NCBI GenBank assembly: GCA_002293825.1 | Contig: DBDW01000001.1 | Coordinates: forward strand, 3,314 to 67,313 | Length of the DNA stretch: 64,000 nucleotides | Reading direction: 5' to 3' | From: Candidatus Magasanikbacteria bacterium UBA922 | GTDB lineage: Bacteria; Patescibacteriota; Patescibacteriia; Magasanikbacterales; UBA922 | In this document: in pieces, positions 18,192-36,975 of the stretch | Layout: each line of letters begins with the position of its first letter | Position numbering within the stretch: the first letter of the stretch is position 1 | Position numbers and translations under genes: made by a program | The notes under the pieces: generated by a model | What the model saw: only the letters and a program-made list of their open reading frames with translations | What the model was told of the DNA's origin: nothing | Databases searched by the model: none

Positions 18192-18210
18192 ACATACTCA
18201 CTAGTGTATG

Positions 18211-19646: not shown

Positions 19647-20024
19647 TCAAAACCTTGCAGACAATATTTCTACAGGCTGATCACTCGTGCGTTTGAATTT
19701 TATCGTATCTACCAATTTATACCGTAAAAAAGTTGGAATTTCCATATCTTCTTCACGATATCTCCCTACCCCAGAAAATACATACGCATACACTTCTCCA
19801 CCATGTGGACCAAGCACAATAGGCACACCTTTCTTTGTTTTTTTCACTGGTTTCTCCAATCTCGGTGGATATGCATACCCTTTGATCTCTGGAGATACGT
19901 CTTTTCCTTCATTCACATCTTTTCCATCAATCGCAAATATCACTTCGACAAAATCAGAACTCCGATTTGCAAAATTGATCACTTTTCGTCCTTCTATCTC
20001 TATAATTGAAAGTTGGTATTCCAT
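19647..20024 (-). CDS. Hypothetical 125 aa protein immediately downstream of, and probably co-transcribed with, the FtsZ-like gene
   Basis: 13 nt gap to the upstream gene; no recognisable domain. Confidence 0.5.
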   Translation of the reverse strand: MEYQLSIIEIEGRKVINFANRSSDFVEVIFAIDGKDVNEGKDVSPEIKGYAYPPRLEKPVKKTKKGVPIVLGPHGGEVYAYVFSGVGRYREEDMEIPTFLRYKLVDTIKFKRTSDQPVEILSARF

Positions 20025-20037
20025 AGAATATATATAA

Positions 20038-20952
20038 CTATGCTCCGATTAATACAATTTTCACTTTGTTTCCCAATTTCTGATCAGACACCACCCCAAA
20101 GAGTATTCGTGCATTCTGATCCACCTGACCTGCGATATAATTCCCTACTGCAGACACACTCTCCATGAGCACCTCACGACCCGCATAAATCACATACAGT
20201 ACGCGCTTCATCTGTGACACCTCGGGCGCTCTCAATGCAGGATGTACAAATAAGGTATCTGTAATCGATGCAATATTTGATTCATCACTCTCAACACTAT
20301 GAAAAAACAATGATCCTGCCGACTGAATCGTAGTTTTCAAATCCGCAAAATCAATATTGATAAGTCCATGCGTATCGACAATATCAAGAATCATGCTGAT
20401 GGCCTGCTCGATCACCCGATTCACTTGCATCAATCCTTCAGATGCGCTCGCCATACCAAGTACACGCGCACTATCGACCACGATCATCCCATCTACTGCG
20501 CCAGACACAATCGCACTCGCTCGATCTACCAAATCCTGTCGAGTAGCTCCTTCGAATGGAAATGCGGTCCTGCCCACAAAACACGTAAGTATTCCCTGTG
20601 CACGTGCCAAATTCGCCACCTCAGCCACCTGATACGCATTTGATTCGGTCGCCAGATTCCCCACGAGAAATACCATATCCGCCCCCGAGAGCACACCACG
20701 TACCTCACGCTCGACCGTAGCCATCACTTCTCGCGCTCCAGCTACGGGATCATTCGATACGAGGCTCATATACGGAACCTCGATTTTCGTAGTGATGTGT
20801 GGTGCATGTGCGAGTGCACTCGGTAGCCCGATTGACACGAGCTCGATCGTACGAGATGCCAGATGATACAGGCGATCGATAATCAGAGCTCCCTGCCCAC
20901 CGATAGAGATGATACGAATACGTGGATGTGATGAAGATTTTTTTGGAGGCAT
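20038..20952 (-). CDS. Divergent FtsZ/tubulin-family paralog with degenerate nucleotide-binding loops (pseudo-FtsZ)
   Basis: Aligns along its full length with FtsZ (IRIISIGGQGAL vs IKVIGVGGGGGN; GADMVFLVGNLATESNAYQVAEVA vs [27 protein letters not shown]; T7 loop NIDFADL conserved). The T1 and T4 glycine loops are lost. Start at the MPPKK Met. Confidence 0.75.
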   Translation of the reverse strand: MPPKKSSSHPRIRIISIGGQGALIIDRLYHLASRTIELVSIGLPSALAHAPHITTKIEVPYMSLVSNDPVAGAREVMATVEREVRGVLSGADMVFLVGNLATESNAYQVAEVANLARAQGILTCFVGRTAFPFEGATRQDLVDRASAIVSGAVDGMIVVDSARVLGMASASEGLMQVNRVIEQAISMILDIVDTHGLINIDFADLKTTIQSAGSLFFHSVESDESNIASITDTLFVHPALRAPEVSQMKRVLYVIYAGREVLMESVSAVGNYIAGQVDQNARILFGVVSDQKLGNKVKIVLIGA

Positions 20953-21009
20953 AGTAGGATGATTCAAGAATAGTGCGATACTGTGTACTATATCACAGCA
21001 CACACATGA

Positions 21010-21045
21010 GACAAAAAAATCGAACAGTTTTAGTGTTCGATGTGT
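21010..21045 (-). terminator. Rho-independent terminator after the NERD gene (ATCGAAC..GTTCGAT then T7 on minus strand)
   Basis: Hairpin plus a 7-nt homopolymer read from sequence. Confidence 0.55.
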
Positions 21046-21140
21046 AGACTCTACTGTCATTCTGAGCCGAATGCACCTGAGGCGAAGAATCCCTTCACGA
21101 ATGATATACACAACAATATTCAAGGGATCCTTCACTGCGT

Positions 21141-21878
21141 TCAGGATGACACACTTTCCTTTTGTTTTTTTCTCAACACTCCTTCTATCTTCTGCACCAC
21201 ATCTGATGAAAGCTTCTCTACCTCATTATCAAGTATTGTTTTTCTCAGCCATTTTTTTCCAACCACACGCACACCTTTCACATCATTATTTCCGAAACGT
21301 ATTCGCGCCGAGTGAGAACTGAACACAATAATCGGTTTTACAAAATACTCTTCCTTGAGCTCAGATAGTAAAAACGCATGCACATCCACAGCCTCACTCA
21401 TGACCTGAGATAAAATATTTTTCTCAAGCCTACTGCCATCTCTGGCAAGCTCATCACCATCATATCCAATACTTCCTTTATAACTCTTCGCATCAATCGC
21501 GAATACACCCGTCGGACCGACCACCACAAAATCAACATCACAATTCTCTCTAAATTTTAAACCATGAAACACAATATATTCATTTGGAAGTTGCGCAAGA
21601 ATTCTACGAACAACCATCTCACCATCTTGTCCATTCAGTGCACTAAAAAACCCAGTCCTACTTCTATCAATTAGAATAAATAATAATTTGAATAAGCCTA
21701 TCCACGCTAGTAATAAAATTAGAGAAACCCACCATAGCAACACAAAAAATAATCGAATATAGTAAAAATAAATAAGTAACAAAATTACCGTTGCCCCAAC
21801 AGCGCTTAAGAAGCGAAAACGATTTTTCTCTTTTTTATCTATTATATATTCACTCTCACCTCCGTATACTTTTGCCAT
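21141..21878 (-). CDS. NERD (nuclease-related domain) protein with N-terminal transmembrane helices
   Basis: 2-3 hydrophobic helices, then GEMVVRRILAQLPNEYIVFHGL...DVDFVVVGPTGVFAIDAKSYKG, typical of NERD. Confidence 0.7.
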   Translation of the reverse strand: MAKVYGGESEYIIDKKEKNRFRFLSAVGATVILLLIYFYYIRLFFVLLWWVSLILLLAWIGLFKLLFILIDRSRTGFFSALNGQDGEMVVRRILAQLPNEYIVFHGLKFRENCDVDFVVVGPTGVFAIDAKSYKGSIGYDGDELARDGSRLEKNILSQVMSEAVDVHAFLLSELKEEYFVKPIIVFSSHSARIRFGNNDVKGVRVVGKKWLRKTILDNEVEKLSSDVVQKIEGVLRKKQKESVSS

Positions 21879-21882
21879 AGTA

Positions 21883-22632
21883 CTATACTATAAGATTATT
21901 TCTAGCTTCGACATATCGACACCAATCGCAGCTCTTCCCTGTCTCTGGGATCGTGTCACTCTCGAGACATTTTTTTATTTTCAGCAGTGTCGGCTCGACC
22001 CATGAATCGTCGCCCGTATATGGAATAAGATTCACATCAAATTCTATGCGTTTATCAAATGCTTCTCGATCCATTTTTCCCGTACAGTACACAAAATATC
22101 CGGTATCAGAAACCAGCAAACCATTCTGTCGCAAGAGCCACTGATACACTTCCATCTGTCGCTTGTAGCCATCTTGCCATTCTTTGTCGAGTTCGGTCAC
22201 CGCTTCCTCTTTTGCAGTAGCCTTGTAATCGACGACAATATATTCATCTGCGCCGGTGATCCAGAGATCATCGATCGCACCCGAGACCAGAAGTCCAGTC
22301 GGCTCGTGCAGATATTTCATTCCGCCAAAATTATATCTCCACTCATCGAGCTCATCGTGTGCCACGGGTCGAGCATCAATCCCATACTCTTTCTGCAATG
22401 GATGCTGTTCACCTCGCACCCGATGTGCGTCGAATTCTTGTTTTAATAAATGATCGACTGCACTATTGATGGAAAACGGAAACCCGGGGACGCGCTTCAC
22501 ACCAAGCTTATTATCAATATAGAAACAACGCGGACACTCAAGAAACAGATCAATCTTTGATCTGCTCAGTTTCCAATTGTTTCCGCCGTAGTTCCAGGCG
22601 TCGCCTCGAGTAGGGTTGTAGAAGGTGGACAT
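21883..22632 (-). CDS. Cas4/RecB-like PD-(D/E)xK nuclease with predicted Fe-S cluster cysteines
   Basis: N-terminal CPRC, VVDYK (DxK), QMEVYQ (QxxxY), C-terminal CDWC. Confidence 0.65.
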   Translation of the reverse strand: MSTFYNPTRGDAWNYGGNNWKLSRSKIDLFLECPRCFYIDNKLGVKRVPGFPFSINSAVDHLLKQEFDAHRVRGEQHPLQKEYGIDARPVAHDELDEWRYNFGGMKYLHEPTGLLVSGAIDDLWITGADEYIVVDYKATAKEEAVTELDKEWQDGYKRQMEVYQWLLRQNGLLVSDTGYFVYCTGKMDREAFDKRIEFDVNLIPYTGDDSWVEPTLLKIKKCLESDTIPETGKSCDWCRYVEARNNLIV

Positions 22633-22636
22633 ACAA
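22590..22636. repeat. Copy 1 of a 46 bp direct repeat: encodes the real N-terminus (MSTFYNPTRGDAWNY) of the Cas4-like nuclease
   Basis: 41/46 identity with 23569-23615. Confidence 0.8.
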
Positions 22637-22643
22637 AATATTC

Positions 22644-23450
22644 TTACTTTTTTTCAATTTTTTTATTTTTACTGCGACGTATTCTAGTTTCGGCTTTCCC
22701 TACACCATCCACAGTTGGCAGTTCTTCAGGCATAGTACCGCCCAATTCTTCGATCGTTTTTCTCACTTTTTGTCCCACATGATAATGTGTCAAATTCGCA
22801 TTCATTTCTCCCTGCACACTTTCTCTCCTCAATTTTGCGTCTGCTTGAGTAGCACGAAATAAATTTGCAGCCAGCTCTTCACTGCCCATGTGATCGAGAA
22901 TCTTTTGAGATTTCTTCAATTGTTTTCTCTGATGAATATCTGAAGCATCCAATCCACCATACAAACCCTTATATCCATAATTCTGAAATCTCCCATAGTT
23001 TGTCACACCAGCTCCTTCTGCTGCTTCAAGTAACGAAGCATTGTGTTTCTTTACCTCATCTCGCAACCTCACACGTTTTTGATCTTCGAGAAGTGCATCA
23101 GAAACTTCTTGTTTTCGAGTTTGAATAGCAAAATATGTTTGACCCAATGCCACGATTTCCTTACTTGGATCAGAATTCTGAATAATCAGATAACAGCCAT
23201 AGCGTGATAGATGTATAGTATCAATACGTCTCTCGGCACCAGACCCGATCATGACCATTTCGTCCACATGGGAAAAATGGTTGTGGATATCTTGACCACT
23301 ATTCTTGCACGCTTCCTTTGCTTTCTCAATTACATTCAAAAATTTGCTATAGTTAGGATATTCTAAGACCTTTGCCAAATCACGGGAAGACCAATACTCA
23401 CCCCCGTATTCATTAACTTTTTTTAAGCGCTCGAATGCATTATGTACCAT
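22644..23450 (-). CDS. dinD: DNA damage-inducible protein D / RhuM-family protein
   Basis: EYWSSRDLAKVLEY...LSRYGCYLIIQNSDPSKEIVALGQTYFAIQTRKQE closely matches E. coli DinD. Confidence 0.85.
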   Translation of the reverse strand: MVHNAFERLKKVNEYGGEYWSSRDLAKVLEYPNYSKFLNVIEKAKEACKNSGQDIHNHFSHVDEMVMIGSGAERRIDTIHLSRYGCYLIIQNSDPSKEIVALGQTYFAIQTRKQEVSDALLEDQKRVRLRDEVKKHNASLLEAAEGAGVTNYGRFQNYGYKGLYGGLDASDIHQRKQLKKSQKILDHMGSEELAANLFRATQADAKLRRESVQGEMNANLTHYHVGQKVRKTIEELGGTMPEELPTVDGVGKAETRIRRSKNKKIEKK

Positions 23451-23568
23451 ATACCCCTCCTTAATTAGTGAATAAAATTATGTAATATTTTAGAATTCTC
23501 TATCTTTTATTTCCCTGACTTCGTTCAATTATATTGCTTATATATTATCTTACAATTTCCCCATCAAT

Positions 23569-23615
23569 AGTTCCAGTCTGCGCCTCGAGTAGGGTTGTAG
23601 AAGGCAGACATAGGA
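23569..23615. repeat. Copy 2 of the 46 bp direct repeat: relic gene start encoding MSAFYNPTRGADWNY followed by a stop
   Basis: Flanks the other side of dinD; 5 substitutions, all keeping the reading frame. Confidence 0.8.
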
Positions 23616-23616
23616 T

Positions 23617-24015
23617 TTACTTAAGTAGATTCCATGTATCTTTATATTTTAAAATAGCTCCTTTCATGATTCTTTTTTCTTTTTTAAAATGACTAATCAA
23701 TTTAGATAATTCGACACTCGGTACTATATATATTTCAGGCTCAACTGCCAAATCTTCAAATTTATTATTATAAATAACAAAAACTACAAAAAGATCTTTT
23801 TTTACTAAGACATTATTCACCACCAAAGATGAGTACCCTCTCACTGATTTCACATCAATTGATATCGATGTTCCATCCTTTTTTACAACCCTAATGTCAA
23901 TGCTCTTCTTGTTACCTTGACTAATATAGGCTTCCATTCCCAATCTATACAACTTTGATAACACTAAATACTCACTTGCAATACCGGTATCGAAGGTATT
24001 TCTTCTTGGTGGCAT
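23617..24015 (-). CDS. Putative Hjc/NucS-like PD-(D/E)xK nuclease (restriction-endonuclease fold), hypothetical
   Basis: E..(24 aa)..DIRVV..(10)..IDVKS pattern; 132 aa. Confidence 0.4.
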   Translation of the reverse strand: MPPRRNTFDTGIASEYLVLSKLYRLGMEAYISQGNKKSIDIRVVKKDGTSISIDVKSVRGYSSLVVNNVLVKKDLFVVFVIYNNKFEDLAVEPEIYIVPSVELSKLISHFKKEKRIMKGAILKYKDTWNLLK

Positions 24016-24019
24016 AGAT

Positions 24020-24451
24020 TTATTTTTTTAACAATACAAAATATGGTAATTTGTCTAACCCTATATAATTAAACATCCAGTAATTCGCACGTCTCGCTGT
24101 TTCTGATAATTTATGTTTTTTTAAATGGGTCTTTGGAACAAACGGGTAAAATCTAATTTCCTGGTGATTTCCCTCTTTATCTTTCCATTTAAAATTCGCG
24201 ATCAGTGCTGGTGTAATAAAACCAGATTTCAAGACTTTATCCATAATTTCCCATCCTGCACCAAAAATAATTGGTTTTGGTTTACTTTGGTTAGTCTTCA
24301 CTTGTGCACGAAAAGAACAGCCAGTGCATTGCACATCATATAAGGGATAGTTGGGTGGCAAGATCATGAGTTTTTTTGCGCAATTTGGACACGGTACATT
24401 TTCTACCACATCCAATTCACCTGCACGACCGTTTTCTTGATTTTTGGACAT
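24020..24451 (-). CDS. Hypothetical zinc-ribbon protein (CPNC-x17-CTGC) linked to the 3' end of hsdR
   Basis: ORF begins 17 nt after the hsdR stop; it would overlap hsdR by 20 nt if the upstream start at 24487 is used. Confidence 0.5.
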   Translation of the reverse strand: MSKNQENGRAGELDVVENVPCPNCAKKLMILPPNYPLYDVQCTGCSFRAQVKTNQSKPKPIIFGAGWEIMDKVLKSGFITPALIANFKWKDKEGNHQEIRFYPFVPKTHLKKHKLSETARRANYWMFNYIGLDKLPYFVLLKK

Positions 24452-24467
24452 ATATATAAATAATCTT

Positions 24468-27400
24468 TTATACGCTCTCCCCCGCAAACAACTCAGCCTG
24501 TTTCAATACGGTATCAGTTGCAATTTCTTGCGCATCCGGTGGATAGCCATATTGATTGAGCAAACGCTTAACCATAATACGCATACGCGCACGGGCTGAT
24601 TCTCTTAGACTCCAATCAATTGATGCATTTTCTCGCACGCGTTGTACCAAAATTCGGGCCAGTTCTCTCAAGGTATCGTCACCAAGTACTTTTCCCGCAC
24701 TTTCATTCATTACCAAAGCATCATAGAATGCAATCTCATCTTCAGTCAATCCTAGATTTTCTCCACGCTTATCAGCTTCTTGTACTTCATGCGCGAGCTT
24801 GATCAACTCATCGATTACTTGCGCTGCAGTTAATAAATTATTTTGGTATTTCTTGATTGCCGCATGAAGTATTTCTGAAAACTTTTTGCTCTGTACCGCA
24901 TTCTTTTTTCCTCGTGTTCTGATTTCATCATTTAATATTTTCTTGAGTAATTCAAGCGCAATATTTTGTCGTTTCATGCCGCGAATTTCTTCCAAGAATT
25001 CTTCTGAAAGAATAGAAATATCTGGTTTTTTGATTCCGGCAGCATCAAAAATATCAATCACCCCTTCCGACACCACTGCTTTGTCTACGATTTGTCGGAT
25101 CGTAGTCTCAATATCCATATCTTTTCCTCCCCCATCGCTCGCCAGTTTGGTAAGTCGTGCTTTGACTGCTTGGAAAAAGGCTACTTCATCTCGAATTTCA
25201 ACTGCTCTCAAATTTGGCATCGCAAGCGCAAATAATTTTCCGAGCGCATTCACTTCTGTGACAAATCGTTCTTTGTGATCTAGATTCCCAAGCAAAAAAT
25301 CTTCTACTTCAAGAATCGCAACTAATTTTTGTTTTGCTGTGCCGGTAAAATATTTTGAATAGTCTACATCGTGTAAAATTCCCTGCACAATTTCATATTT
25401 AGCAAGCATGTGCGGCACGGTATCCACTGTCTGATCGGCAATCATACCACCCGTTCCACCACTCTCAGTATAAACAGCAAGCGCTTCCTTGAGATCACTT
25501 GCAATGCCGATATAGTCGACAATGAGACCACCTGGTTTATCCTTAAATACTCGATTCACACGAGCAATCGTCTGCATGAGATTGGCTCCCTGCATAGGCT
25601 TATCAATATACATGGTATGAAGGCAGGGCACATCAAATCCCGTAAGCCACATGTCGCGCACAATCACGAGTTTCAATGGATCTTTAGTATCCTTGAATCT
25701 GGTCGCCAGATCTTTTCGATCTTCTTTGGTGGTATGATGCGGTTGCCAATCGGTCGGATCGGATGAAGATGTAGTCATGACGACTTTAAGTGCCCCCTGT
25801 TTCTTGTCATCACTATGCCATTCTGGTTTTAGTTTTATAATCTCTCGGTAGAGCTCGACTGCAATACGACGACTCATGGCCACAATCATTGCTTTTCCTT
25901 CGAATACTTCTTGTCGTGCTTCAAAATGCGCGACCAGATCACGCGCAATGTCTTGCAATCGTGCATGGTGTCCCACAATTGCCTCAAGCTGTGCCCATTT
26001 TGCTTTCGCTTTTTCGCTCACGGTTGATTCTTCACTTTCGAGTACGGCATCGACTGCACGATCAAGTTCTGCTTTTTTGTTTTCATCAAATCCAATTTTT
26101 ACCAATCGTGATTCGTAACTGATAGGAACCGTCGCCCCATCCACGACTGCTGCCTGGATATCGTAGACATCAACATAATTACCAAAGACTGCGCGAGTAT
26201 TGGCATCATTTTTTTCAATCGGAGTGCCAGTGAACCCGATAAACGACGCATGAGGTAGTGCATCTCGCAGATATTTTGCAAATCCATACGTAGTCTCTGC
26301 ACCCGTTTCAGTTGTTTTCACTTTTGCCCGTAATCCATATTGACTTCGGTGTGCTTCATCGGCCATGACAATAATATTTTCTCGATCCGAGAGTTTGCCA
26401 TACTCAGTCTCCCCTTCAGCCAGTGAAAATTTCTGAATGGTGGTAAATATAATGCCTCCACCTGATGTTGCTAATAGTTTTTTCAAATGTTCACGATTTT
26501 CTGCCTGGACCGGCTCCTGACGCAAGAGTTCGGTCGCTCCGGCGAAGGTATCAAATAATTGTTGATCAAGGTCGTTTCGATCCGTAATCACCACAATTGT
26601 CGGATTATTGAGTCTCTGCACAATCTTTCCTGCATAGAAAACCATGGATAATGATTTTCCTGATCCTTGCGTATGCCATACCACTCCAGCCTTCCGATCA
26701 CCTCGCGTTGCACTCAGTGTAGAATCGAGTGCTTTTTCTACCGCAAAATATTGATGATAGGCTGCAACTTTCTTGATCGTGCGAGTATAGGGCAACCCTG
26801 CATCATCAAATTTTCGTTCTTGTTCGTAGACCGTAAAATTTCGAACGAGATCAAGCAATCGCTCAGGCGTAAGCATTCCCAGTACTAATGTTTCAATCTC
26901 TGGCACCGTACGTTTCTCATCACGTGCTCCATCAATCGATTTCCACGCGAGGAATCGATCAAATCCGCTTGTGATCGTACCCATACGGGCGTCGAGACCG
27001 TCTGAGATGACGAGGATTCCATTGTACGCAAATAAATCAGGAATTGCTGATTGGTAATTGGTAAGCTGAGTAAATGCTTTGTGCACCGTCGCCTCTTCAT
27101 TCTTCGCATCTTTGAGTTCAATCACGACGAGTGGTAATCCGTTTACAAAGAGTACTACATCAGGAATTTTGTCTCGTTCCAGTCCCTTGATATAGAATTG
27201 ATTAGTTGCAAGCACATCATTATGTGACACCTGCTCCCAATCAATCACCCGCACTTCCCGTCCGCGCATATGTCCCTCTTCAAGAATTTCTACGGTTACT
27301 CCTTCTACGAGCAGGCGATGTACCGCACGATTATTTTCTACGATATTGTCGGTCTGGGTAGCAGTATGAATAATCTGATTCACTGCAAAGTTTCTCGCTT

Positions 27401-27575
27401 CTTCGGGGATATCAGGATTGAGCCGAGCGATTGCAGTGACCAGTCGATCACGAAGTATTACCTGCGAGAGATCCGGTCGCTCGGGTTCGAGTGCCTCGGG
27501 ACTGAGGTATGAAAAACCTGCTTCGCGGAGAAGGTCGAGGGTGAGTTGTTCGATTGAGGATTCGTTGAGGGTCAT
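24468..27575 (-). CDS. hsdR: Type I restriction enzyme R subunit
   Basis: 1035 aa with SF2 helicase motifs (TGSGKS, DEAHRSQ) and N-terminal nuclease region. Confidence 0.95.
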
Positions 27576-27576
27576 A

Positions 27577-28884
27577 TTATTTCATTTTAACAATCAAATC
27601 TAATACCTTCTTAAAGGTTTCACTATCAGGCAACAGATCTTGCAACGTTTTAACCTCTTCCAAAAAATCAGTGCCATCTTTTTTATTTCTTGACTTGTCC
27701 AACTTCTCTTTTGCATTAGCAACCTCTTCATAAGGTGATTGATAAAGCAAACACAAATTATCTGAAATAAATTTAACTATATCAACTTTAGTCTCAGGTA
27801 ATTTACTCTTAACACTAACGTTTACAACATCTTCTAACAAAAACTTCGTGTGATTTCTTATTACAGCCGCGATTACAGCCTTAGAGGCATATTTTTCATT
27901 AAGTTTTCTCTCGTGACTATACTGTTTTGCAGCCAAACCAACTAAAAACAATAGTGGTGATGTTAGTGTTAATCTATATAATGTCGTTTCTATTCCAGGA
28001 TGACTATCCCTATGAAATAAAATAAACAACATAATGGAGAGTAAAATTATACCTAGAACAAAAACACCCAACCAAATCAAAGAACTTATACGTAATAATT
28101 TTTCTCTCTTTTGAAAAGAATTTGCAAAACCTGTATCTGTGATCAAAGCTGTGATTTTTTCAACTTCTGACTTATTAGTATTTATCTCTTTAAGCCCTTG
28201 CTCAGACTCGTCTTTCATTTTTAAAACAGTATCCTTTACTTGTTTTATATCTTCAACTAGTTTAGCTGATTGATCACGAAAAGATTTTATTTCAACCAAC
28301 AAAGCATTCGATTGTTTCTGCAAGTCGACTGACTGATTAAGGATTGCTTGAAGCCCGTTATTAGTATCATTTATTTTAGCATTAACAGCAACAAAATCTT
28401 CATAAGCTTTTTGAATTTGGGAAATCTTATTTTGTATCTCAACAAATTGTTTTTCAATCTCAGCTAAACTTTGCTGAGATTTAGTCTTTATATTTTCGAC
28501 ATCTCCCTTAAAACTTGCCGCGGTGGAAACCAAAGCTTCGACCTCACTATTACGTCCTTCAATTTTTCCTTTAATATTCTCTATCTTTTGTAAAAATTCA
28601 TCAATTTTCTCTACATTTGGACGAGCTTGCTCAACATTATTTTTTATTTCTGATAAATATGTGTTGACTTTTTCTTTAATATTTTCAATTACTACCAATC
28701 TCTCACGAGAATCATTTGATATTTTTTCAATATCAATATTTCTAGTCTCGACTGCTTTAAATGCAGCATCATATCGAACACTAAGTGTATTAATTTCATC
28801 AAGTAAATTTTTTGCTTTCTTATATTGATTTCTTAACTCTTGTAATTCTTGTTGAGTAATGTTTTGACTATTTGTATCATCCAT
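27577..28884 (-). CDS. Hypothetical 435 aa protein: about 255 aa N-terminal coiled coil, two adjacent TM helices, and a 140 aa C-terminal domain, embedded between hsdS and hsdR
   Basis: Heptad-rich K/E/Q/N/I N-terminus; [28 protein letters not shown]; 5 nt gap to the hsdS stop, 1 nt gap to the hsdR start. Confidence 0.7.
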
Positions 28885-28889
28885 ACTTT

Positions 28890-30125
28890 TTACTTAAAAA
28901 TTTTGTTTAATATTTTATCTCTTAATTTTGACAAAGTTTGAATTTCAAAAAAATTTAGTTTTATCTTTCCAAATTGAGAAGAGACAGTATTACTAAATAA
29001 ATTAAGAATATCACTGTTTGGTATATTGATTTCAATATTTGAAAAAACGCCTGTATTTACATTTAGAGTTGCAGAACCTCCACCGCCGATCATTTGCAAA
29101 TCACTACTCATTGATTTCAATACAAAATACAAATATTGTAAAATATGTTCATCTTTAGGAATAATTGAATTTATTTGCTGATTTGTTTGAGAAGCTTCTG
29201 TGGTTATGGAAACTAAACCAACGGTTGCAATACAACTTACACAAATCGAATTTTCTGGCACATATTTATTTCTTTGTGTATCTGCACCAGATAGAGTCAA
29301 TGAATCTTCTGTTTTAACTATAAACATTTGACCATGCATGTCTGGAATTTTAATAAATGGAACTTGTCCTCCAAAAAATTCTTGATTTGATTTTGACGGA
29401 GTTTTGCCGCAGACAATATCTCCGATATCCCCCAACTTCCCAACCCTCCATCCCTCCGGAATCATCCCAAGCTCAGAATCAACCATCTTCCCTGTCGCAC
29501 CTGGAAATCTGAAATCCACAAACCATTCTTTGAAGAGTGTCTGTGCGATACTTTCGAGTGTATTATTTTCTTTTCGCAGCAGCTCGATCTTGTCGTCGAG
29601 ACTTCCGAGGATTGCGGCGATTTCGCGTTGTTCGGAGAGAGGTGGAAGTAAAAATTCATAGTCTCCAATTTTTGTAGGTGACGTATGCTTAACAGTACTG
29701 CCCGTTGCAGAATTCACAATAGACTTCTGATAATCTCTTGTTCTCATCAGATAGTAAATGAAATCTTTAGATACTTCATCTTCATTAACTTCTACAAGAC
29801 CAACTCGTTGATTATGCAAAAATATTTTATCACTTTTATCTGGTATTAATGCGGGGAAACCTAAGGTATCACCCTCCTTACTCAAATCTGTCATTGTTAC
29901 CACCAAATCCCCCGCCTTTAAGACGTATTCATCAGGAATTGGCCCATCATAGTACTTTTTGCCATCCTTCCAGCCTCCCCCAATCAAAAAATTACCTGGT
30001 GTAAGTAGAATATTTTTTGTCTCCTTAGTTGAAAAATATTCACCTTTAAAAGCAAAACCATGTTTTATACTGACTATGTCACCAAGCTTTATTGTTTTCC
30101 AATTTTTTGATGAGGTGAGGGGCAT
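28890..30125 (-). CDS. hsdS: Type I restriction-modification specificity subunit (two target-recognition domains)
   Basis: 411 aa with duplicated TRD architecture and conserved central and C-terminal spacer helices. Confidence 0.9.
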   Translation of the reverse strand: MPLTSSKNWKTIKLGDIVSIKHGFAFKGEYFSTKETKNILLTPGNFLIGGGWKDGKKYYDGPIPDEYVLKAGDLVVTMTDLSKEGDTLGFPALIPDKSDKIFLHNQRVGLVEVNEDEVSKDFIYYLMRTRDYQKSIVNSATGSTVKHTSPTKIGDYEFLLPPLSEQREIAAILGSLDDKIELLRKENNTLESIAQTLFKEWFVDFRFPGATGKMVDSELGMIPEGWRVGKLGDIGDIVCGKTPSKSNQEFFGGQVPFIKIPDMHGQMFIVKTEDSLTLSGADTQRNKYVPENSICVSCIATVGLVSITTEASQTNQQINSIIPKDEHILQYLYFVLKSMSSDLQMIGGGGSATLNVNTGVFSNIEINIPNSDILNLFSNTVSSQFGKIKLNFFEIQTLSKLRDKILNKIFK

Positions 30126-30127
30126 AT

Positions 30128-30634
30128 TTATTTAACACCAATCATTTTTCTAAATTCATCTGCAATTTTTTCTTCTTGCAACACCAAATCTGTTCTCATC
30201 TTTTCAGCAAGTTCATCCCATAATCTCGCATTTGGAATTTCACCTATTGGATGCGCCTCATACACAAAGTCAACAAAAAGCTTTCTATAATCATCTCGCA
30301 ATATGTCCATATTTTTACACAGATTCTTTGGTAAATAATGCTTCTTGGCATGATAGTATCTTATAAAATCATTAAATAGATTACTTGCTTTTGTTCGACG
30401 TTCAAATTCTGCATCCTGAGAACCATCATCTTGTTGAAAGATTGACACAAGCTCAGACATGGATTGCTTTAAAGATTCCATTTTTTCCATCAGACTATCA
30501 AAAACCTCTCCACGCTTTGTATACAGTCCGGATTCTTTGATAGCACGAATTTGTGTTCGATGATTCATCCATCCAGTAACTACAGCTGCCACCAAACCAG
30601 AACTAAACACTGATAATACAATAGTTTGCAAGTC
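30128..30634 (-). CDS. Hypothetical protein with N-terminal TM helix (169 aa), embedded in the R-M locus
   Basis: Start at MDLQTIVLSVFSSGLVAAVVTGW; the ORF-track start at 30700 is probably too early. Confidence 0.5.
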   Translation of the reverse strand, partial: DLQTIVLSVFSSGLVAAVVTGWMNHRTQIRAIKESGLYTKRGEVFDSLMEKMESLKQSMSELVSIFQQDDGSQDAEFERRTKASNLFNDFIRYYHAKKHYLPKNLCKNMDILRDDYRKLFVDFVYEAHPIGEIPNARLWDELAEKMRTDLVLQEEKIADEFRKMIGVK

Positions 30635-30641
30635 CATATAA

Positions 30642-30890
30642 TTAATTCCAACCCATTTTATACAACATAAAACCTCCAACAAGGAGAACAAAAAGTCCAA
30701 TTAAAACTTGCCCCCACCATATTTGATACCATTTTTCTGTACGCCCCGCACCATCATCAAAACTATTTCCTCGTGCAAAAGTATTTTCCCCTTCATCTTG
30801 AATTCCAACATCAAATCCTGAAAAAGAGTTGTTAATAAATTTATTATTTTTTCCCCTATTGAGGACGCCCACACTCTTTTTTTGTGTCAT
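30642..30890 (-). CDS. Hypothetical tail-anchored small membrane protein (82 aa, C-terminal TM)
   Basis: WYQIWWGQVLIGLFVLLVGGFMLY hydrophobic C-terminus; 7 nt upstream of the next gene. Confidence 0.4.
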   Translation of the reverse strand: MTQKKSVGVLNRGKNNKFINNSFSGFDVGIQDEGENTFARGNSFDDGAGRTEKWYQIWWGQVLIGLFVLLVGGFMLYKMGWN

Positions 30891-30977
30891 AAAATTTATT
30901 TTAAGATTCTGTTCTCACTATATACGTCTTAAAAAACTTCTTAATCGTCTCAACTGTTACACCCCTTATCTCGCTCA

Positions 30978-32168
30978 CTAATTATTTTTATTAAGCGATT
31001 GTGGAATAAACCCATTTTTCTCAAGTGATGTAATCACACTTCGTAATAGATAATTATTATTGAATCCAATCGTATAAATACGACCATTCTCATTGATTGA
31101 TTGAAGCATTTTTTTATCCAACAATTTTCTAATAATGCGCGATCGTTGCACTGAAGATTCCTGACCAATCACCTTCTCAAGATCTGCAGATTTAATCGTC
31201 ATTTTCTTGGAACGAATGACTGCTTTCAGAATTTCATACTCTCGGTCCGTGATCATCTTCTTTTCTAGTGCGTCAGTAATAGATGGGAGGAGGATTTTCT
31301 CGACCACATAGTGTATATTCAATAATCGATCAATTTTTTCTATTTCATCTTTTAATCCTCCAAGCACATACTCACACCACGCAAGCACATGCTCTGTTTT
31401 TCCTGTATCAGCGAGTGCCAGCATGTCATAATATTTTTGGCGATCCATACAGAATATAGCGGTCGGATTGAGAATCCGCCCCGCCTTTACTTGAAAATTT
31501 TGTTTGATAAGCATTGCATAGGTAAACATGCGTACCATACGACCGTTTCCATTATCAAATGGATGTACCCAGGTCATGCGATGATGAGCAAGTGCGGTGA
31601 CCAATAAATCATTCTGCAAATCTACCGGAGTATTCACAAATCCTAGTAATTCTTCGAGATATGTCGGTACTTGTATAGGATCAGGAAGTACTACAGTAGC
31701 ACCCTTAATTGAAACAGGTGTCTTTCGCAATTGACCTGGATATTTTGAACCCTCACCATCTGGGGGAGGTGTAAGCCCATCCACAATAATTTTATGAATT
31801 TCTGAAAGATGTGCTCGGGTAATTTTTGTACCATTTTTTATTTGTGCGTCAATAAATTCGATCGCGCGATCAATATTAAAAATTTCCCGTAGTTTTTCTT
31901 CGGTAGTATCTTTAGGCACTTGATCAATAATTTTTTCTACAAATTCAGCAAGCGTAGTTCGATTTCCCTCAATACGCACTGAACCCAAACTTTCCATCCA
32001 CTGAAAAATTTCTTTGAGTTGAAAAAAGATATATGGAGGTACCGCACCACCTAATCTCTTAACCCGTAACTTTTCTAGCTCAACAATAATGCGCGCTAAA
32101 TTCGACCCCCAACTAGGTTCAGGAAGTATCAAAGGGATATCTATAAATGTAACATTTTCATTTGACAT
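30978..32168 (-). CDS. Fic/DOC family protein (AMPylase-type), embedded in the type I R-M locus
   Basis: HPFDNGNGRMVR Fic motif; 396 aa. Confidence 0.9.
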   Translation of the reverse strand: MSNENVTFIDIPLILPEPSWGSNLARIIVELEKLRVKRLGGAVPPYIFFQLKEIFQWMESLGSVRIEGNRTTLAEFVEKIIDQVPKDTTEEKLREIFNIDRAIEFIDAQIKNGTKITRAHLSEIHKIIVDGLTPPPDGEGSKYPGQLRKTPVSIKGATVVLPDPIQVPTYLEELLGFVNTPVDLQNDLLVTALAHHRMTWVHPFDNGNGRMVRMFTYAMLIKQNFQVKAGRILNPTAIFCMDRQKYYDMLALADTGKTEHVLAWCEYVLGGLKDEIEKIDRLLNIHYVVEKILLPSITDALEKKMITDREYEILKAVIRSKKMTIKSADLEKVIGQESSVQRSRIIRKLLDKKMLQSINENGRIYTIGFNNNYLLRSVITSLEKNGFIPQSLNKNN

Positions 32169-32291
32169 AATTTAACACCAATACTTGATAAAATAGCTCT
32201 ATGTAGCTATTTTTTAGCTGAATTTACTATAGCATTATTTATCAAATTATGCAAGAGGTTATTTAACATCAATACATCATTACTACTATCT

Positions 32292-32509
32292 AATGGCAAC
32301 ATTTTTCTTTAATTTGTTGCCATTTAACCAGAGAAGTCAACAAAATTTTACCTTATTTTAGCCAAAATTTTGCATCTTAGTTAAGTATTGATGTGACACT
32401 TAACCAAAAGTAATTTTTATTGCTTAATCTAGCTAAATTTAATCTTCAATGGCAACAATATCGCCTATTTTGTTGACCTTACTCACCTCAGTGGCAACAA
32501 AACTATAAA
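32292..32509. repeat. Cluster of (A/T)ATGGCAACA motifs: three direct copies (about 32292, 32448, 32491) plus one inverted copy (32316-32325) forming a palindrome, inside a 550 bp AT-rich noncoding region
   Basis: Motifs read from sequence; additional hairpins at 32193-32215 and 32380-32404. Confidence 0.5.
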
Positions 32510-32686
32510 ATATCTCATTGTAGCCACATTTTTTGCCTGATAGTTAAAGTCTTTACCTATTGATCAGCAGAGGAGAAAAACTATCCTTTTTTACAAAATG
32601 TGGATAACATCAGTAATTATTGACTTTTTAAGATTTTTTATGTATAGTGTATATACATTTGGCGTCCCACATACGTGGGAAGCTCC

Positions 32687-32718
32687 GCTCCTCGCTCCGG
32701 CGAGGAGCTGTTTTTTTA
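32687..32718 (+). terminator. Strong + strand rho-independent terminator (GCTCCTCGC-TCCG-GCGAGGAGC then T7) with no + strand ORF upstream
   Basis: Perfect 9 bp GC-rich stem and T7; overlaps the stop codon of the convergent mazF-like gene. Confidence 0.65.
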
Positions 32719-33130
32719 TTCAAACTGTTTCCGAAATTCAGTTCGCACACTCATGAATTGTTCACTATCGAGCTTTGATTTTTTGCGCAATAACCGTTTC
32801 GCGCTAATTACCCTTCCTTGAGAAATATTGACACTTCTCACCTCTTCATCAATCACCACATGCATCTGATACCACGGTTTTTCTTCTTTTATCTTCGTAC
32901 TTGTCGGCAAAACAAAGCACATATCTCTCGAATATTTTTTGAGAATCAGCACTGGTCGTTCAAACAAATCATTTTTACCATCCACCTCATATCCAATATT
33001 TTTTTCCCAATGCCGCCCACCATATCTCACGCTCTTCAAAATATACTTCTCTTTTCTCTTGATTCAGATGATGACGAATCTTCTTTTTTGTCCATGCGAC
33101 AAATTTTTCACCCACCTCATACGGAGTCAT
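32716..33130 (-). pseudogene. MazF/PemK-family endoribonuclease toxin gene interrupted by a +1 frameshift in an A7 homopolymer (plus-strand T7 at 32999-33005)
   Basis: The upstream frame encodes ...REVYFEEREIWWAALGK, then a stop. The downstream frame continues NIGYEVDGKNDLFERPVLIL...MCFVLPTSTK.... Removing one A gives a continuous 137 aa MazF-like protein. Confidence 0.6.
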
Positions 33131-33152
33131 ACCTGTAGTAAATAGTAAAAAA

Positions 33153-34697
33153 CTATATCTCAATACCCACTTTTTTCAACTGTTTTTTGATCTCCTCATT
33201 AAGCCTTCCCTCTTCCTCGATCTGCCCTTTGAGCTCTACCGCAAGCTTCCCCATTTTTTCCTCAAACGGAATTCCATCATCAATCGCATCAGTAATCCCA
33301 ACATAGCGACCCGGAGTGAGTACATAATTGTGCTTTTGTACGTCTGCAAGTGTTGCAGATTTAGTGAATCCTTTTTTGTCTTCATACTTCCCATCCTTCG
33401 TTCTCCATTCGTGATAGACACCTGCCACCATTTCTATATCCTCATCACTAAATTCTCGATGCGTACGATCTGCCATGAATCCTACATCTGATGCATCGAT
33501 AAATAATATCTCACCCGTACGTTTCCGATCACCATTTCCGACACGTTTTCGCGAAATAAACCAAATACATGCAGGAATACCAGTGTTGTAGAATAATTGT
33601 TTTGGAAGCATGACAATACAATCGACCAGATCCGCATCTACGAGCGCTTTTCGTATCTCACCCTCACCACTTGATTGTGACGAGAGCGATCCATTTGCAA
33701 GCACACACGCCATTACTCCATGTGGCGAGAGATGGTAAATCATATGCTGAAGCCACGCAAAATTTGCATTGCCTGCCGGAGGCTTGCCATATTGCCAGCG
33801 CGGATCATTCTGTAATAATTCCGCACTCCAGTCTGAAACGTTGAATGGCGGATTTGCCAAGATATAGTCTGCTTTGAGATCCTTGTGTGCATCATTGAGA
33901 AATGATCCTTCAGTATTCCATTTGATTCCACTTCCATCAATGCCACGGATTGCCAAATTCATGCGCGCGAGGCGATACGTGGTCTGATTACTTTCCTGTC
34001 CATAGACTGCCAGATCATCAATTCTCCCCGCATGAGATTTCACAAATTTTTCTGACATGATAAACATTCCCCCACTTCCACAGCATGGATCATAGATGCG
34101 TCCTTTGTAGGGCTCAATCATTTGTACCATCAACTTTACAATTGATTTTGGTGTATAGAATTGACCACCTTTTTTTCCTTCAGCATTAGCAAATTCTCCG
34201 AGGAAATATTCATAGACGCGACCCAATAAATCTTTTGATTTTGCTTCTTCATCTCCGAGTGCAATATTGCCAATAAGATCAATCAATCCTCCGAGTGAGC
34301 CTTTATCAAGATTTGGCCGAGCAAATACTTTGGGCAAAATTCCTTTGAGTTCTGGATTGAGTTTTTCTATTGCTTCCATGGCGCGATCGAGATCTTCTCC
34401 AATCGTCGGCAATTTTGACCGACTATGCAGAAATGACCAGCGTGCTTCTGCTGGCACATAAAACACATGTTCTGCTCGGTATTCATCTATGTCTTCTGGA
34501 TTTGCACCTGTTCCTTTTTCTTTTTCTAGTGTCAGTTTAGCATGAAGTTCTTCAAATGAATCAGAAATATACTTGAGAAATACCAATCCAAGCGCGACAT
34601 TTTTGTATTCTGCTGCATCAATGTTTTTGCGGAGTTTATCCGCTGCTTTAAACAACGTTTTTTCGAAATTTTCTACTGGTTTTTTTTGTTGAGCCAT
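33153..34697 (-). CDS. hsdM: Type I restriction-modification methyltransferase subunit
   Basis: N6-adenine MTase motifs: LANPPFN (NPPF), DPCCGSGGM (motif I). Start at MAQQKK. Confidence 0.95.
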
Positions 34698-34788
34698 AAT
34701 AAAAAATAGTACTCTCATAGTAGCACCCTGCAGTATATGCGTCAATTTATTCTACTTACCTAAAATCCGCATATTTCAGCTGATTTTC

Positions 34789-34861: not shown

Positions 34862-35296
34862 TCACTGTCGCACAAATACAAAGATATTCCCCGCTCCCTC
34901 GAGTGTCATCTCTGCACTCGCATGAGTGACCACTGCCCCGAGAGCAAGCATACTCCCCCATGCCTGCTCCATCTCCATAATACCTGCAGGCGACGAACAC
35001 CACATCTTGGTAGACACGAGAAGACTCGAGAGCTGTCCCTCGGCGAGGGTATACTCACCACTCATCGTATTGCACAATCGTATATGGAGACGCCCGTCGA
35101 GAAAAGACAGGAAATACTGCTCACCTAGAGGAATCGACGTATTATTGAATGAGGCGAGGCGATACATCCTCCCATCCAGAGATGTGGTAGGAAGTGTTTT
35201 TTCAGGATGAAATACCGTGCGCATGTACACCAATACACCCACACTTAGAAGTACGAGTAGGCACGCAATCAATCCGATTTTCATAGTGATACGCAT
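34862..35296 (-). CDS. META/HslJ-like domain lipoprotein, GC-rich
   Basis: Signal/TM helix, then CNTMSGEYTLAEGQL...LVSTKMWC pattern of the META domain (PF03724). Confidence 0.55.
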   Translation of the reverse strand: MRITMKIGLIACLLVLLSVGVLVYMRTVFHPEKTLPTTSLDGRMYRLASFNNTSIPLGEQYFLSFLDGRLHIRLCNTMSGEYTLAEGQLSSLLVSTKMWCSSPAGIMEMEQAWGSMLALGAVVTHASAEMTLEGAGNIFVFVRQ

Positions 35297-35431
35297 AGAT
35301 ACTCACTAGTATAATACAGATAGATGTACTCATACAAACACACGATGGTATACAAAAAAACAAAAGACCCTGTATCACTCGGATACAGGGTTACTACACA
35401 TGAGAAGACCGCGAAACCAAGGAGCAGCTGC

Positions 35432-35950
35432 TCACGAGTCTCGCATATCTCCCTCGATGCACACCGCCAGAAACCAGAAATGGCTCGCCCACGTACTCTC
35501 GGGCGCATGACGACGCACACGCACCTCACGAGAAGTGTCTCCACCATCGAGATACATGATCTCACGCGATCCGTCATCGAGAGTGACAGACTCAGAAGCG
35601 AGCGCCACGATCGGGAACCTGCGCTGCAGATTCATGAAGAACGCTCCCAGAGCGAGCAGCTCTCGAGTGTTCGCCGGACGGAGCATGGCGAGCGCGAGGT
35701 GCTTCTCGACCTCATCACTCGTAGCATCTCGTCCCAGATTCACGAGACAGAGCTTCACACGAGCGACCCCCCGATTGTTCGAGGGGAAAAATTCAGCGGT
35801 AGCACGCCAGCACTCCCAGTCATAGCGTCCAGCTCTGATCGCCTGTGTGAAAGACATCTCATAGTCGACCATCATATCAGCCCCCCGATCGAAGAGCGGT
35901 GCATATGCACCCTCGACCACAGGAGCCTGCTCAGCAGTAGTTCTCCCCAT
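35432..35950 (-). CDS. Hypothetical protein (about 172 aa), GC-rich, no recognised domain
   Basis: ATG preceded by GGAGGG; the antisense ORF 35324-35983 is low-complexity and rejected. Confidence 0.45.
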   Translation of the reverse strand: MGRTTAEQAPVVEGAYAPLFDRGADMMVDYEMSFTQAIRAGRYDWECWRATAEFFPSNNRGVARVKLCLVNLGRDATSDEVEKHLALAMLRPANTRELLALGAFFMNLQRRFPIVALASESVTLDDGSREIMYLDGGDTSREVRVRRHAPESTWASHFWFLAVCIEGDMRDS

Positions 35951-36024
35951 CTCACCCTCCACAGCATAAGTCAGCTGTCGTGACAGACACCTGCCGTACA
36001 CGCATCTGACAAGACCACTAGAGA

Positions 36025-36486
36025 CTACACACACCGCAGGATGCGATCAGCATCCGTCCCATCCTCATTGACGAGGGACCATCTGTGCACCCACTGCTCA
36101 CGATCCCACACGAGACAGTTCACGTAAAGCCGATCCGGGCTCAGCCAGTCGGTGAAGATGATGAAGTAGCCCCGCCACTCGACAGGAATTTCTTCCTGAT
36201 AGCGAAGGAGATGCTCAGCATGCATCCGACCCAGATGCGCCATGCGCTCACGCGCACGACGGAACATCGTGTGTCCACTGACGACGGTTTCGTGTGGATT
36301 GAGAAAATTCACCAGCTCGTATCGACGTCCACCGATCAGGGCACTCATCTGAGCAGCTCGCATGATCATCTCATCACAAAACCGTACCACCTCCGCCCGA
36401 TACTCCTCTTTCACGAGCATGTGAAAACGCCGATCCCCGAGACTCTGCACAAAATGTGCAAGGTAATCAAAATCTTTCACATCCAT
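36025..36486 (-). CDS. Hypothetical protein (153 aa), GC-rich, no recognised domain
   Basis: ATG preceded by GGAGGGAG; 74 nt upstream of 35950. Confidence 0.45.
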   Translation of the reverse strand: MDVKDFDYLAHFVQSLGDRRFHMLVKEEYRAEVVRFCDEMIMRAAQMSALIGGRRYELVNFLNPHETVVSGHTMFRRARERMAHLGRMHAEHLLRYQEEIPVEWRGYFIIFTDWLSPDRLYVNCLVWDREQWVHRWSLVNEDGTDADRILRCV

Positions 36487-36935: not shown

Positions 36936-36975
36936 CAAAAAACCCTGTACCGTTCTGGTACAGGGTTTTGTGTTT
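36936..36975 (+). terminator. Rho-independent terminator (CCCTGTACC-GTTCT-GGTACAGGG then TTTTGTGTTT); its T-tract overlaps the 3' end of rnpB on the opposite strand
   Basis: Perfect 9 bp stem read from sequence. Confidence 0.6.

Follow-up and report, generated by a model that had tools for sequence, protein, structure and literature searches.

Why should a single type I restriction-modification (R-M) locus of a bacterium from the candidate phyla radiation (CPR, or Patescibacteria) be interrupted by a toxin remnant, a Fic protein and several membrane proteins, and what kind of locus results? We followed this question in a window of 64,000 nucleotides (contig DBDW01000001.1 of assembly GCA_002293825.1, Candidatus Magasanikbacteria bacterium UBA922), where hsdM, hsdS and hsdR are separated by genes of other families and followed by nuclease genes and an aberrant FtsZ homolog. 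The first-pass annotation had viewed this block as a layered defence locus. All genes that it named were recovered by open reading frame (ORF) listing and family scans, in the order it gave and on the minus strand, while the nuclease genes that it had placed upstream lie downstream of hsdR. The location on one strand is confirmed but not distinctive, as the minus strand carries nearly every gene in the interval 15.7-48.6 kb.

We consider it probable that the region is an accessory mosaic defence island on the chromosome of this Candidatus Magasanikbacteria member. Gene identities and their order, a frameshift, an insertion scar, the absence of the island in relatives and differing R-M systems at the same backbone are direct observations. 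New here are the resolved insertion history, a family of coiled-coil membrane proteins and a recurring FtsZ-paralog neighbour. Family scans against Pfam, PADLOC v2.0.0 and NCBIfam covered the genes between 18.7 and 36.5 kb of the window, with PDB used for structures and Rfam for RNA. For comparison with relatives, 80 QueA loci from named metagenome-assembled genomes (MAGs; 1.2 Mb) were used, and labels such as L116 denote fetched relative loci. By its own QueA, the window falls among Candidatus Magasanikbacteria. A 15.3-kb region is 100% identical across contigs from four metagenome samples; the contig for the window at the Joint Genome Institute is Ga0074438_1000255 (3300005689).

The restriction-modification core and its embedded genes

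Judged by its family matches, the core of the locus is a complete type I R-M gene set in which foreign genes are embedded, as the first-pass annotation had proposed.

33153-34718, minus strand: hsdM (Pfam N6_Mtase 1.5e-108 and HsdM_N 2.7e-24; PADLOC MTase_I 686 bits; G+C content (GC) 0.416)
28890-30125, minus strand: hsdS (Methylase_S 5.4e-45 in two stretches; PADLOC Specificity_I 2.5e-90, full length; GC 0.352)
27577-28884, minus strand: gene for a 435-residue coiled-coil protein with two transmembrane segments, here called CCTM (GC 0.304, the lowest of the island)
24468-27575, minus strand: hsdR (HSDR_N, SWI2_SNF2/ResIII, T1R_D3-like and T1RH-like_C; PADLOC REase_I 1216 bits, full length; GC 0.441)

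Each of the three subunits is full length with very strong model scores. HsdS has two target-recognition domains, and the N-terminal nuclease, the superfamily 2 motor and the C-terminal domain were all found in HsdR. For hsdM, an alternative start at 34697 agrees with a promoter-like site at 34745-34717. In such a system, HsdM2S would methylate host sites and HsdR would translocate and cut unmethylated incoming DNA. The gaps between p169 (a small gene described below), hsdS, CCTM and hsdR are 2, 5 and 1 nt; translational coupling of hsdS, CCTM and hsdR is plausible, and the series p82-p169-hsdS-CCTM-hsdR might be translated together.

The locus has probably served as a sink for independently acquired cassettes. 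The interval between hsdM and hsdS contains a PemK toxin gene, now dead, with its end hairpin, a Fic gene with a repeat-rich leader and two genes for small membrane proteins; CCTM is located between hsdS and hsdR, and a truncated DpnI-like nuclease after hsdR.

32716-33130, minus strand: PemK/MazF-like toxin pseudogene (PemK_toxin 4.2e-08 on the 3' frame)
32169-32715, minus strand: repeat-rich non-coding spacer of 547 nt upstream of fic
30978-32168, minus strand: Fic (Pfam Fic 3.6e-16; PADLOC SoFic 2.9e-38 and PDC-S04 2.9e-18)
30642-30890, minus strand: p82, an 82-residue protein with one C-terminal hydrophobic segment; promoter-like site 30944-30917 upstream
30128-30637, minus strand: p169, a 169-residue protein with one N-terminal hydrophobic segment, ending 2 nt before hsdS
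24020-24451, minus strand: DpnI-like domain of 143 residues (Pfam DpnI 2.2e-11, 44 bits against a cutoff of 26.7; PADLOC mREase_II 1.1e-06)

The frameshift that had been noted in the mazF-like gene is real. It sits in an A7 run (32999-33005), deletion of one A restores an ORF of 137 residues, and it is not a read error because the sequence is 100% identical in the four samples. An antitoxin gene was not found, with hsdM ending 22 nt upstream and no ORF above 52 residues in the downstream spacer. Another PemK remnant lies in L116 at 8966-9097. A G+C-rich hairpin (32687-32708) at the end of the window cassette is 86% conserved beside the PemK remnants of L116 and L122 and is therefore part of the PemK cassette. 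On the plus strand, a promoter-like TTGACT-17-TATAGT (32620-32648) is followed by this hairpin and a T-run, and the elements at 32620-32717 could yield an RNA of about 60 nt complementary to the PemK transcript at its 3' end.

The spacer upstream of fic bears out the structured non-coding region of the first-pass annotation, as it has a predicted fold with z = -6.4 and no ORF above 52 residues. The Rfam scan gave no significant family, the sole weak match (istR, plus strand, E = 0.75) being at chance level, and apart from the hairpin no homolog of the spacer was found in the fetched loci. The strong fold is explicable by TGGCAACA DNA palindromes: 8 TGGCAACA sites occur in the window against 2.3 expected, four of them within the fic leader, where the TGGCAACA/TGTTGCCA sites are at 32294, 32315, 32450 and 32492, and one TGGCAACA/TGTTGCCA pair forms a perfect 10-nt inverted repeat with a 13-nt spacer. 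These palindromes might be operators for fic. A putative binder is the C-terminal region of Fic itself, which has a weak AbiEi-like, winged-helix match (PADLOC AbiEi 0.0025).

The Fic protein resembles SoFic in its fold, its HxFxxGNGRxxR site, its N-terminal S/TxxxE(G/N) motif and its similar length, and the PADLOC SoFic match spans 55-349 of 361. Read from the sequence, the inhibitory-type motif is SVRIEG and the active-site motif HPFDNGNGRMVR; the latter has the core H..F..GNGR..R, with N at the D/E position of HxFx(D/E)GNGRxxR, and so departs from the strict pattern. Unlike SoFic, however, it scores 34 bits with the NCBIfam equivalog model, far short of the cutoff of 550, which makes it a distant relative rather than an ortholog, with a putative role in defence. 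The two small proteins p82 and p169 gave no significant family match in Pfam and PADLOC, nor did p82 in NCBIfam.

The gene after hsdR had been described as a zinc-ribbon protein. The four cysteines (CxxC...CxxC) are present, but its identity is a DpnI-like nuclease domain. It covers positions 13-152 of the 183 in the Pfam DpnI profile, i.e. the catalytic domain alone, without the C-terminal winged-helix domain that binds N6-methyladenine DNA (143 residues against 257 in the 4esj chain). In the alignment with DpnI (PDB 4esj, E = 0.017), a Q is found at the catalytic E (ELK) of DpnI.

A conserved backbone and the cassettes inserted into it

Downstream of the DpnI-like gene, the island abuts a series of genes with a different history.

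23617-24015, minus strand: p132, 132 residues with a visible E...D...DxK pattern
23568-23612, minus strand: Cas4-like gene remnant of 15 codons (MSAFYNPTRGADWNY*), directly repeated at 22589-22633
22634-23567, minus strand: DinD cassette, an insertion of 934 nt with a promoter-like site (23555-23528) and an AAGGAGG Shine-Dalgarno sequence
22644-23450, minus strand: dinD coding sequence (NCBIfam NF008573 366.5 bits against a cutoff of 242, 9e-110; PADLOC PDC-S13 6.1e-110; Bro-N)
21883-22632, minus strand: Cas4-like PD-(D/E)XK protein, 249 residues (PDDEXK_1 1e-11; Cys 33, 36, 235 and 238)
21141-21878, minus strand: NERD protein (NERD 3.2e-14; predicted N-terminal transmembrane segment or segments)
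21041-21019, minus strand: hairpin plus T-run resembling a terminator; a promoter-like site for the FtsZ-like gene comes next (21014-20987)
20038-20952, minus strand: FtsZ-like protein, 304 residues (FtsZ_C match alone, 27.0 bits at a cutoff of 27)
19647-20024, minus strand: p125, 125 residues, partner of the FtsZ-like gene in nearer relatives

Comparison with related contigs suggests that p132, Cas4-like, FtsZ-like and p125 are a lineage backbone shared at the DNA level with other Magasanikbacteria, and that DinD and NERD are cassettes inserted into it. The order p132 (60% identical), Cas4-like (84-85%), FtsZ-like (57%) is found in L116/L117 and L122, and in the latter it extends to p125 (74%) and AHSA1 (53%). 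The DNA of L116 is colinear with the window at 24007-23568 (L116 6624-7057; p132 and the first Cas4-like codons), at 22633-21902 (the rest of the Cas4-like gene) and at 21040-20866 (the FtsZ-like promoter region), while 23567-22634 with DinD and 21901-21041 with NERD have no counterpart there. DinD is likewise absent at the p132/Cas4-like junction of L122, which has a DUF3800 gene in the slot between Cas4-like and FtsZ-like where the window has NERD. A 45-nt direct repeat (23568-23612 and 22589-22633, 89% identical) flanks the DinD cassette, and its upstream copy keeps the ancestral p132/Cas4-like junction. This duplication, together with the absence of the segment from L116, is why DinD can be read as an insertion. 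The Shine-Dalgarno sequence of the cassette is the sole strong one among 16 starts inspected. The NERD protein weakly matches the NERD parts of MAD6 and PglW.

Two nuclease claims of the first-pass annotation did not hold. The label Hjc-like for p132 has behind it just the visible residue pattern and one sub-threshold Pfam match (pPIWI_RE_REase, E = 0.044), and a comparison with PDB sequences gave no match. Homologs of p132 are directly upstream of Cas4-like in L116 and L122 (60% identity), with a further one in L119 (30%). The Cas4-like protein had been counted among the passengers. It scores below the NCBIfam cas4 cutoff (25.6 against 65 bits), the window has no CRISPR array, and weak Cas4 matches are the only Cas family signal in the genes scanned. 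More than 8000 homologs at 77-90% identity occur across CPR classes (Woesebacteria, Paceibacterota, Uhrbacteria, Andersenbacteria and others), and in Paceibacterota and Uhrbacteria they are found among housekeeping genes (L125, L128-130). Such numbers of close homologs, the housekeeping neighbourhoods and scores short of Cas4 mark it as a gene conserved in CPR bacteria rather than a passenger of the defence island. Its conservation far exceeds that of QueA (59-71% identity in the more distant of the fetched loci); this suggests extreme constraint or frequent transfer, and the gene may be an anchor for homologous recombination by which neighbouring islands are swapped.

The strong conservation of the Cas4-like gene, and the order from p132 to AHSA1 that the window has in common with L122, might be taken to mean that the whole block is an operon with a conserved housekeeping role in the lineage. 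This is hardly tenable, since p132 is where conservation ends, each related contig has an R-M part of another type and content, and this part is absent beside QueA in close relatives. Relatives with QueA 78-84% identical keep the order YgjP-PIF1-QueA-SPOUT-TGT-UvrD, have malic enzyme, MltG and other genes absent from the window upstream of YgjP, and have none of the window genes from 18.7-38.2 kb at their QueA locus. In the distant relative L034, TyrRS-ArgRS-bactofilin-DAGK-tRNA-RNase P and three glycosyltransferase-type genes precede QueA. The interval between RNase P and QueA is thus variable and the R-M block accessory, in line with the earlier view of an accessory island: in the synteny comparison, the block was missing in relatives rather than conserved across the lineage like housekeeping genes. 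Exact-protein look-ups of HsdR, the META-domain protein and p125 returned the same strain alone, always with the island, and no island-free sibling.

Beside the island, the YgjP-like metallopeptidase and PIF1-type helicase genes (16860-18750) are a conserved pair next to QueA in relatives (L010, L013, L014, L016, L017) and are outside it. Genes of the YgjP type often accompany type I R-M loci elsewhere. On the other flank, the RNase P RNA (36973-37380) is on the same strand as DAGK, whereas that of L034 (5795-6292) is on the opposite strand, and the window is without the tRNA found between DAGK and RNase P in L034.

In composition, the island is uneven. The AT-richness claimed for the whole region applies to about 27.0-33.0 kb, where GC is 0.30-0.38 against a window mean of 0.418 and where CCTM, hsdS, p169, p82, Fic and the spacer are located, but hsdM and hsdR are at the window mean, and the Cas4-like and FtsZ-like genes are richer in GC. 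The segment at 34862-36486 is GC-rich, with third-position GC of 0.52 for the META-domain gene and 0.61 for p153 against about 0.3-0.4 for most genes measured, and it is probably also foreign, as no counterpart was detected in related loci. Long ORFs of the two strands overlap at 35324-36034, and the segment gave no family matches.

The insertions also raise the question of a mobile element (prophage, integrative and conjugative element, or integron), to which the cassette-like insertions, the conserved hairpin at the end of the PemK cassette and a serine recombinase near one CCTM homolog (L096) could point. We regard this as very unlikely: no integrase, transposase or phage structural family was matched among the genes scanned, no tRNA is found at the island borders, the 45-nt DinD scar is the sole long direct repeat in 17.5-38 kb, and CCTM has no relatives among 2.9 million viral contigs. 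A 20-nt direct repeat (18 of 20 positions; 18189-18208 and 35294-35313) was rejected as a border, being near chance and with the YgjP-PIF1 adjacency conserved in relatives. Its copies, 17.1 kb apart, overlap the PIF1 and META start codons and the sequence just upstream.

A single operon, as had been proposed, is unlikely in view of four long spacers with promoter-like sites (547, 166, 87 and 188 nt) and of the promoter-like site and Shine-Dalgarno sequence that the DinD cassette has of its own. The terminator that had been placed before the FtsZ-like gene is there as the hairpin with T-run listed above, and the stretch 20987-21041 is conserved with L116 and L122.

CCTM, the FtsZ-like protein and what they may do

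CCTM belongs to an undescribed family without a Pfam, NCBIfam or PADLOC model that repeatedly adjoins R-M genes, and it is a new lead. The protein consists of an N-terminal coiled coil of about 250 residues, a DTGFANxFQxRE motif, a helical hairpin with two hydrophobic stretches and an ERxLNEKYxFKA...H motif; both motifs and both stretches are the conserved parts in alignments with the window protein as query. The protein gave coiled-coil noise alone in the three model collections, as did Pfam scans of 21 close and 10 distant relatives. Its 53 close homologs come mostly from Patescibacteria, are constant in length and have 27-54% identity from end to end. In a profile search, cluster representatives numbered 128 at E<1e-30 and 925 at E<1e-10, with the latter figure possibly inflated by the coiled coil. 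The full-length AlphaFold model is poor (mean local confidence pLDDT 65, global confidence pTM 0.30), while that of the C-terminal 207 residues reaches pLDDT 77, and 86-97 in the hairpin formed by its two long helices. A Foldseek comparison of this C-terminal model with PDB found nothing below E = 0.49, generic helical hairpins alone.

The neighbourhoods of CCTM homologs give a more definite picture. R-M queries matched in 11 of 16 non-redundant CCTM loci (162 kb) and, with the same query set, in one of the 80 QueA loci, an imperfect control in that one syntenic region, in 80 copies, makes up the background and some queries came from the foreground. In three of the 16, hsdS is directly upstream of the CCTM homolog in other type I loci, and in two of these three it is followed by an hsdR whose product is 73% or 39% identical to the window HsdR. 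In six further architectures, CCTM is beside, and transcribed divergently from, a LexA (S24) domain fused or adjacent to a DNA methyltransferase. The LexA-linked methyltransferases are of three classes (N6_N4, Dam/D12 and N6_Mtase/Eco57I-like), belong to type II R-M loci of Patescibacteria and often come with a type II endonuclease (BglII, TdeIII, HNH) and a small GIY-YIG protein. Of two further CCTM loci, one combines an EcoRI-type methylase with an HNH protein and the other has DinD.

Several of these neighbours are of interest in their own right. A LexA DNA-binding domain and S24 self-cleaving peptidase are fused to methyltransferases in L091 (7634-9244), L094 (2954-4315), L106 (5963-7516) and L109 (4782-7286), with split versions in L099 and L105; a literature search for such fusions found nothing relevant. 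GIY-YIG proteins of 126-146 residues form a recurring pair with CCTM, directly upstream and in the same orientation (L091 9614-9994, L106 7584-7964, L109 7550-7990). In the type I system of a Magasanikbacteria MAG, an unannotated gene for 464 residues without PADLOC match also lies between hsdS and hsdR (L119 3524-4918); it was rejected as a CCTM relative (hhalign probability 0.2%).

The recurrence of the order hsdS/CCTM/hsdR with HsdR proteins 39-73% identical argues for a selected association. It also bears on the idea that the locus is a genomic sink alone, in which the embedded genes would be selfish or decaying hitch-hikers in a tolerant place without cooperation with R-M. That idea has been discussed (10.1101/2024.01.29.577857) and agrees with the frameshifted PemK and the remnants of the same cassette scattered in related contigs, the truncated DpnI-like protein, the differing GC of the cassettes and the expression signals of DinD. 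The ORFs of Fic, DinD, NERD and CCTM are intact, however, and with the recurring position of CCTM this leads us to consider a pure sink somewhat unlikely.

We favour CCTM as an effector that would be released upon restriction failure or DNA damage, with membrane damage and a division block weighted about equally; the division block has this weight because of the divergent LexA partners and a link to the FtsZ paralogs. This link is a 287-residue protein with the CCTM C-terminal domain directly upstream of an FtsZ paralog (L118, hhalign probability 98.3%).

The name pseudo-FtsZ given to the FtsZ-like protein of the window is a fair one. The tubulin/FtsZ GTPase family PF00091 was not matched, and the position of the GGGTG(S/T)G signature reads GNLATES, while the FtsZ_C match is kept and the T7 loop NIDFAD aligns with canonical FtsZ. 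The protein ends with the globular domain, without C-terminal linker and tail. It belongs to a family of short FtsZ paralogs (302-307 residues) with GNLA(T/N)(E/D)x in place of the signature, the T7 loop kept and no tail, and the conservation of the paralog at 35-58% identity implies that it functions. Among more distant homologs is a TIR-FtsZ fusion of 459 residues (P0305).

In all five contexts seen, the FtsZ-like gene is directly downstream of an R-M island, and these islands differ: where the window has its type I system, L116 and L122 have RhuM-Fic together with PDC-S14 and an Eco57I-like enzyme of type IIG, L119-121 have an unrelated type I system of the order hsdM-NYN-hsdS-464aa-hsdR, and the P0214 contig has Dam methylase, AlwI, another methylase, HARE-HTH and DUF2779. 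The arrangement fits a slot upstream of the backbone that acts as a hotspot bounded by a conserved anchor. The genes downstream of FtsZ-like are not conserved beyond the nearest relatives, and the gene may itself belong to the variable region. A homolog of p125 follows it in L122-L124 (74%) and is absent in L116; p125 gave no family match, and a gene for 128 residues after FtsZ-like in L119, considered as a p125 homolog, is unrelated. A genome-contig scan with the FtsZ-like protein and a literature search for FtsZ-like genes in defence islands returned nothing relevant.

Could CCTM, possibly with the FtsZ paralog, instead be a membrane-anchored regulator that halts division upon DNA damage or restriction, i.e. 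an SOS-type checkpoint? YneA, ChiZ and DivS are SOS-induced division inhibitors of monoderm bacteria whose genes are divergent from lexA, and CCTM homologs are likewise membrane proteins divergent from LexA-type repressor domains, here in six non-redundant architectures. The CCTM-domain protein upstream of an FtsZ paralog, a paralog with T7 loop and without GTP signature that would suit a filament capper, and weak EzrA and spectrin-type coiled-coil matches go in the same direction. Unlike these inhibitors, CCTM is much larger, has a long coiled coil and a two-transmembrane hairpin and shows no sequence similarity to them, and the LexA domains beside its homologs are fused to R-M DNA methyltransferases. 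As the coiled-coil matches are non-specific, the window has no LexA gene, no structural match backs any function and the association may reflect mere clustering of R-M islands, we find a checkpoint doubtful.

Returning to the effector reading that we favour, its most novel form would make CCTM the constant partner of an R-M-linked module, co-translated with HsdS and HsdR or held under a LexA-methyltransferase repressor, often with GIY-YIG, and unleashed to kill or to stop division when restriction is blocked or DNA damaged; the FtsZ paralog without GTP signature may join as a Z-ring poison. As a whole, this scheme is rather improbable.

For the island at large, R-M would be the first line of defence, with Fic (by AMPylation), DinD/PDC-S13, NERD and CCTM as independent or back-up activities; suicide or back-up effectors behind R-M, as the first-pass annotation had it, would be one form of this. 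The defence link claimed for the passengers agrees with matches to defence or defence-candidate models for Fic (SoFic, PDC-S04), DinD (PDC-S13) and the DpnI-like protein (mREase_II). Several points weigh against the island as a working defence locus. PemK is a dead toxin pseudogene, and the truncated DpnI-like protein lacks one domain and, by alignment, probably a catalytic residue. The proteins p82, p169, p132 and CCTM match no defence model. The control for the CCTM neighbourhoods has the flaws described. Promoter and terminator scans gave counts no higher than shuffled sequence, which makes the map of transcription units provisional. Finally, relatives were seen as contig fragments, with the backbone genes not placed in complete genomes.

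Known systems and the biology of the island

Defence genes embedded in type I R-M loci are documented (10.1101/2024.01.29.577857; PMC11411939; PMC12707154), and the island of the window is thus of a known sort. Examples are PrrC in EcoprrI, TgvAB in VPI-2 of Vibrio cholerae and 145 PADLOC candidates obtained through guilt by embedding (PMC12707154, PMC11411939, 10.1101/2024.01.29.577857). As in these loci, accessory genes are found inside hsdM/hsdS/hsdR in the same orientation, and DinD and Fic match models of the guilt-by-embedding kind (PDC-S13; PDC-S04 and SoFic, respectively). The window locus differs in that five genes or remnants, at two positions, break up its hsd genes, a larger number than the cited loci have. 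Its passengers include no PrrC-type ABC ATPase or anticodon nuclease and no GmrSD-type enzyme, so that the likeness to PrrC is positional alone; neither a PrrC-type ABC ATPase nor a known guard was matched among the embedded genes in Pfam, PADLOC or NCBIfam. Also unlike the PADLOC candidates, the gene between hsdS and hsdR matches no PADLOC model and the host is a CPR bacterium.

The immigration control region of Escherichia coli is a defence hotspot bounded by conserved genes (PMC12707154), and the window is similar in having a conserved anchor (p132, Cas4-like and FtsZ-like) beside a variable slot for R-M and defence genes. In contrast to that hotspot, one conserved side is definable here, and cassettes also lie inside the anchor, where DinD follows codon 15 of Cas4-like and NERD separates Cas4-like from FtsZ-like. 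For the Patescibacteria MAG nzgw456, a full type I R-M system has been described on a genomic island (PMC12455944); by this description, that CPR genome too has acquired an island with type I R-M genes horizontally. CPR bacteria are reported to lack CRISPR for the most part and presumably depend on R-M systems (PMC12455944).

In our judgement, CPR bacteria appear to be poorly represented in RefSeq and in the cultivated-genome data behind current defence catalogues. The locus details how a CPR organism may assemble a defence island, with both a type I R-M operon and a conserved anchor taking up cassettes, and the DinD scar dates one insertion relative to related contigs. The CCTM family and the FtsZ paralogs without signature are two testable leads, and should either be functional in defence or in a division checkpoint linked to restriction, it would represent a new type of effector.

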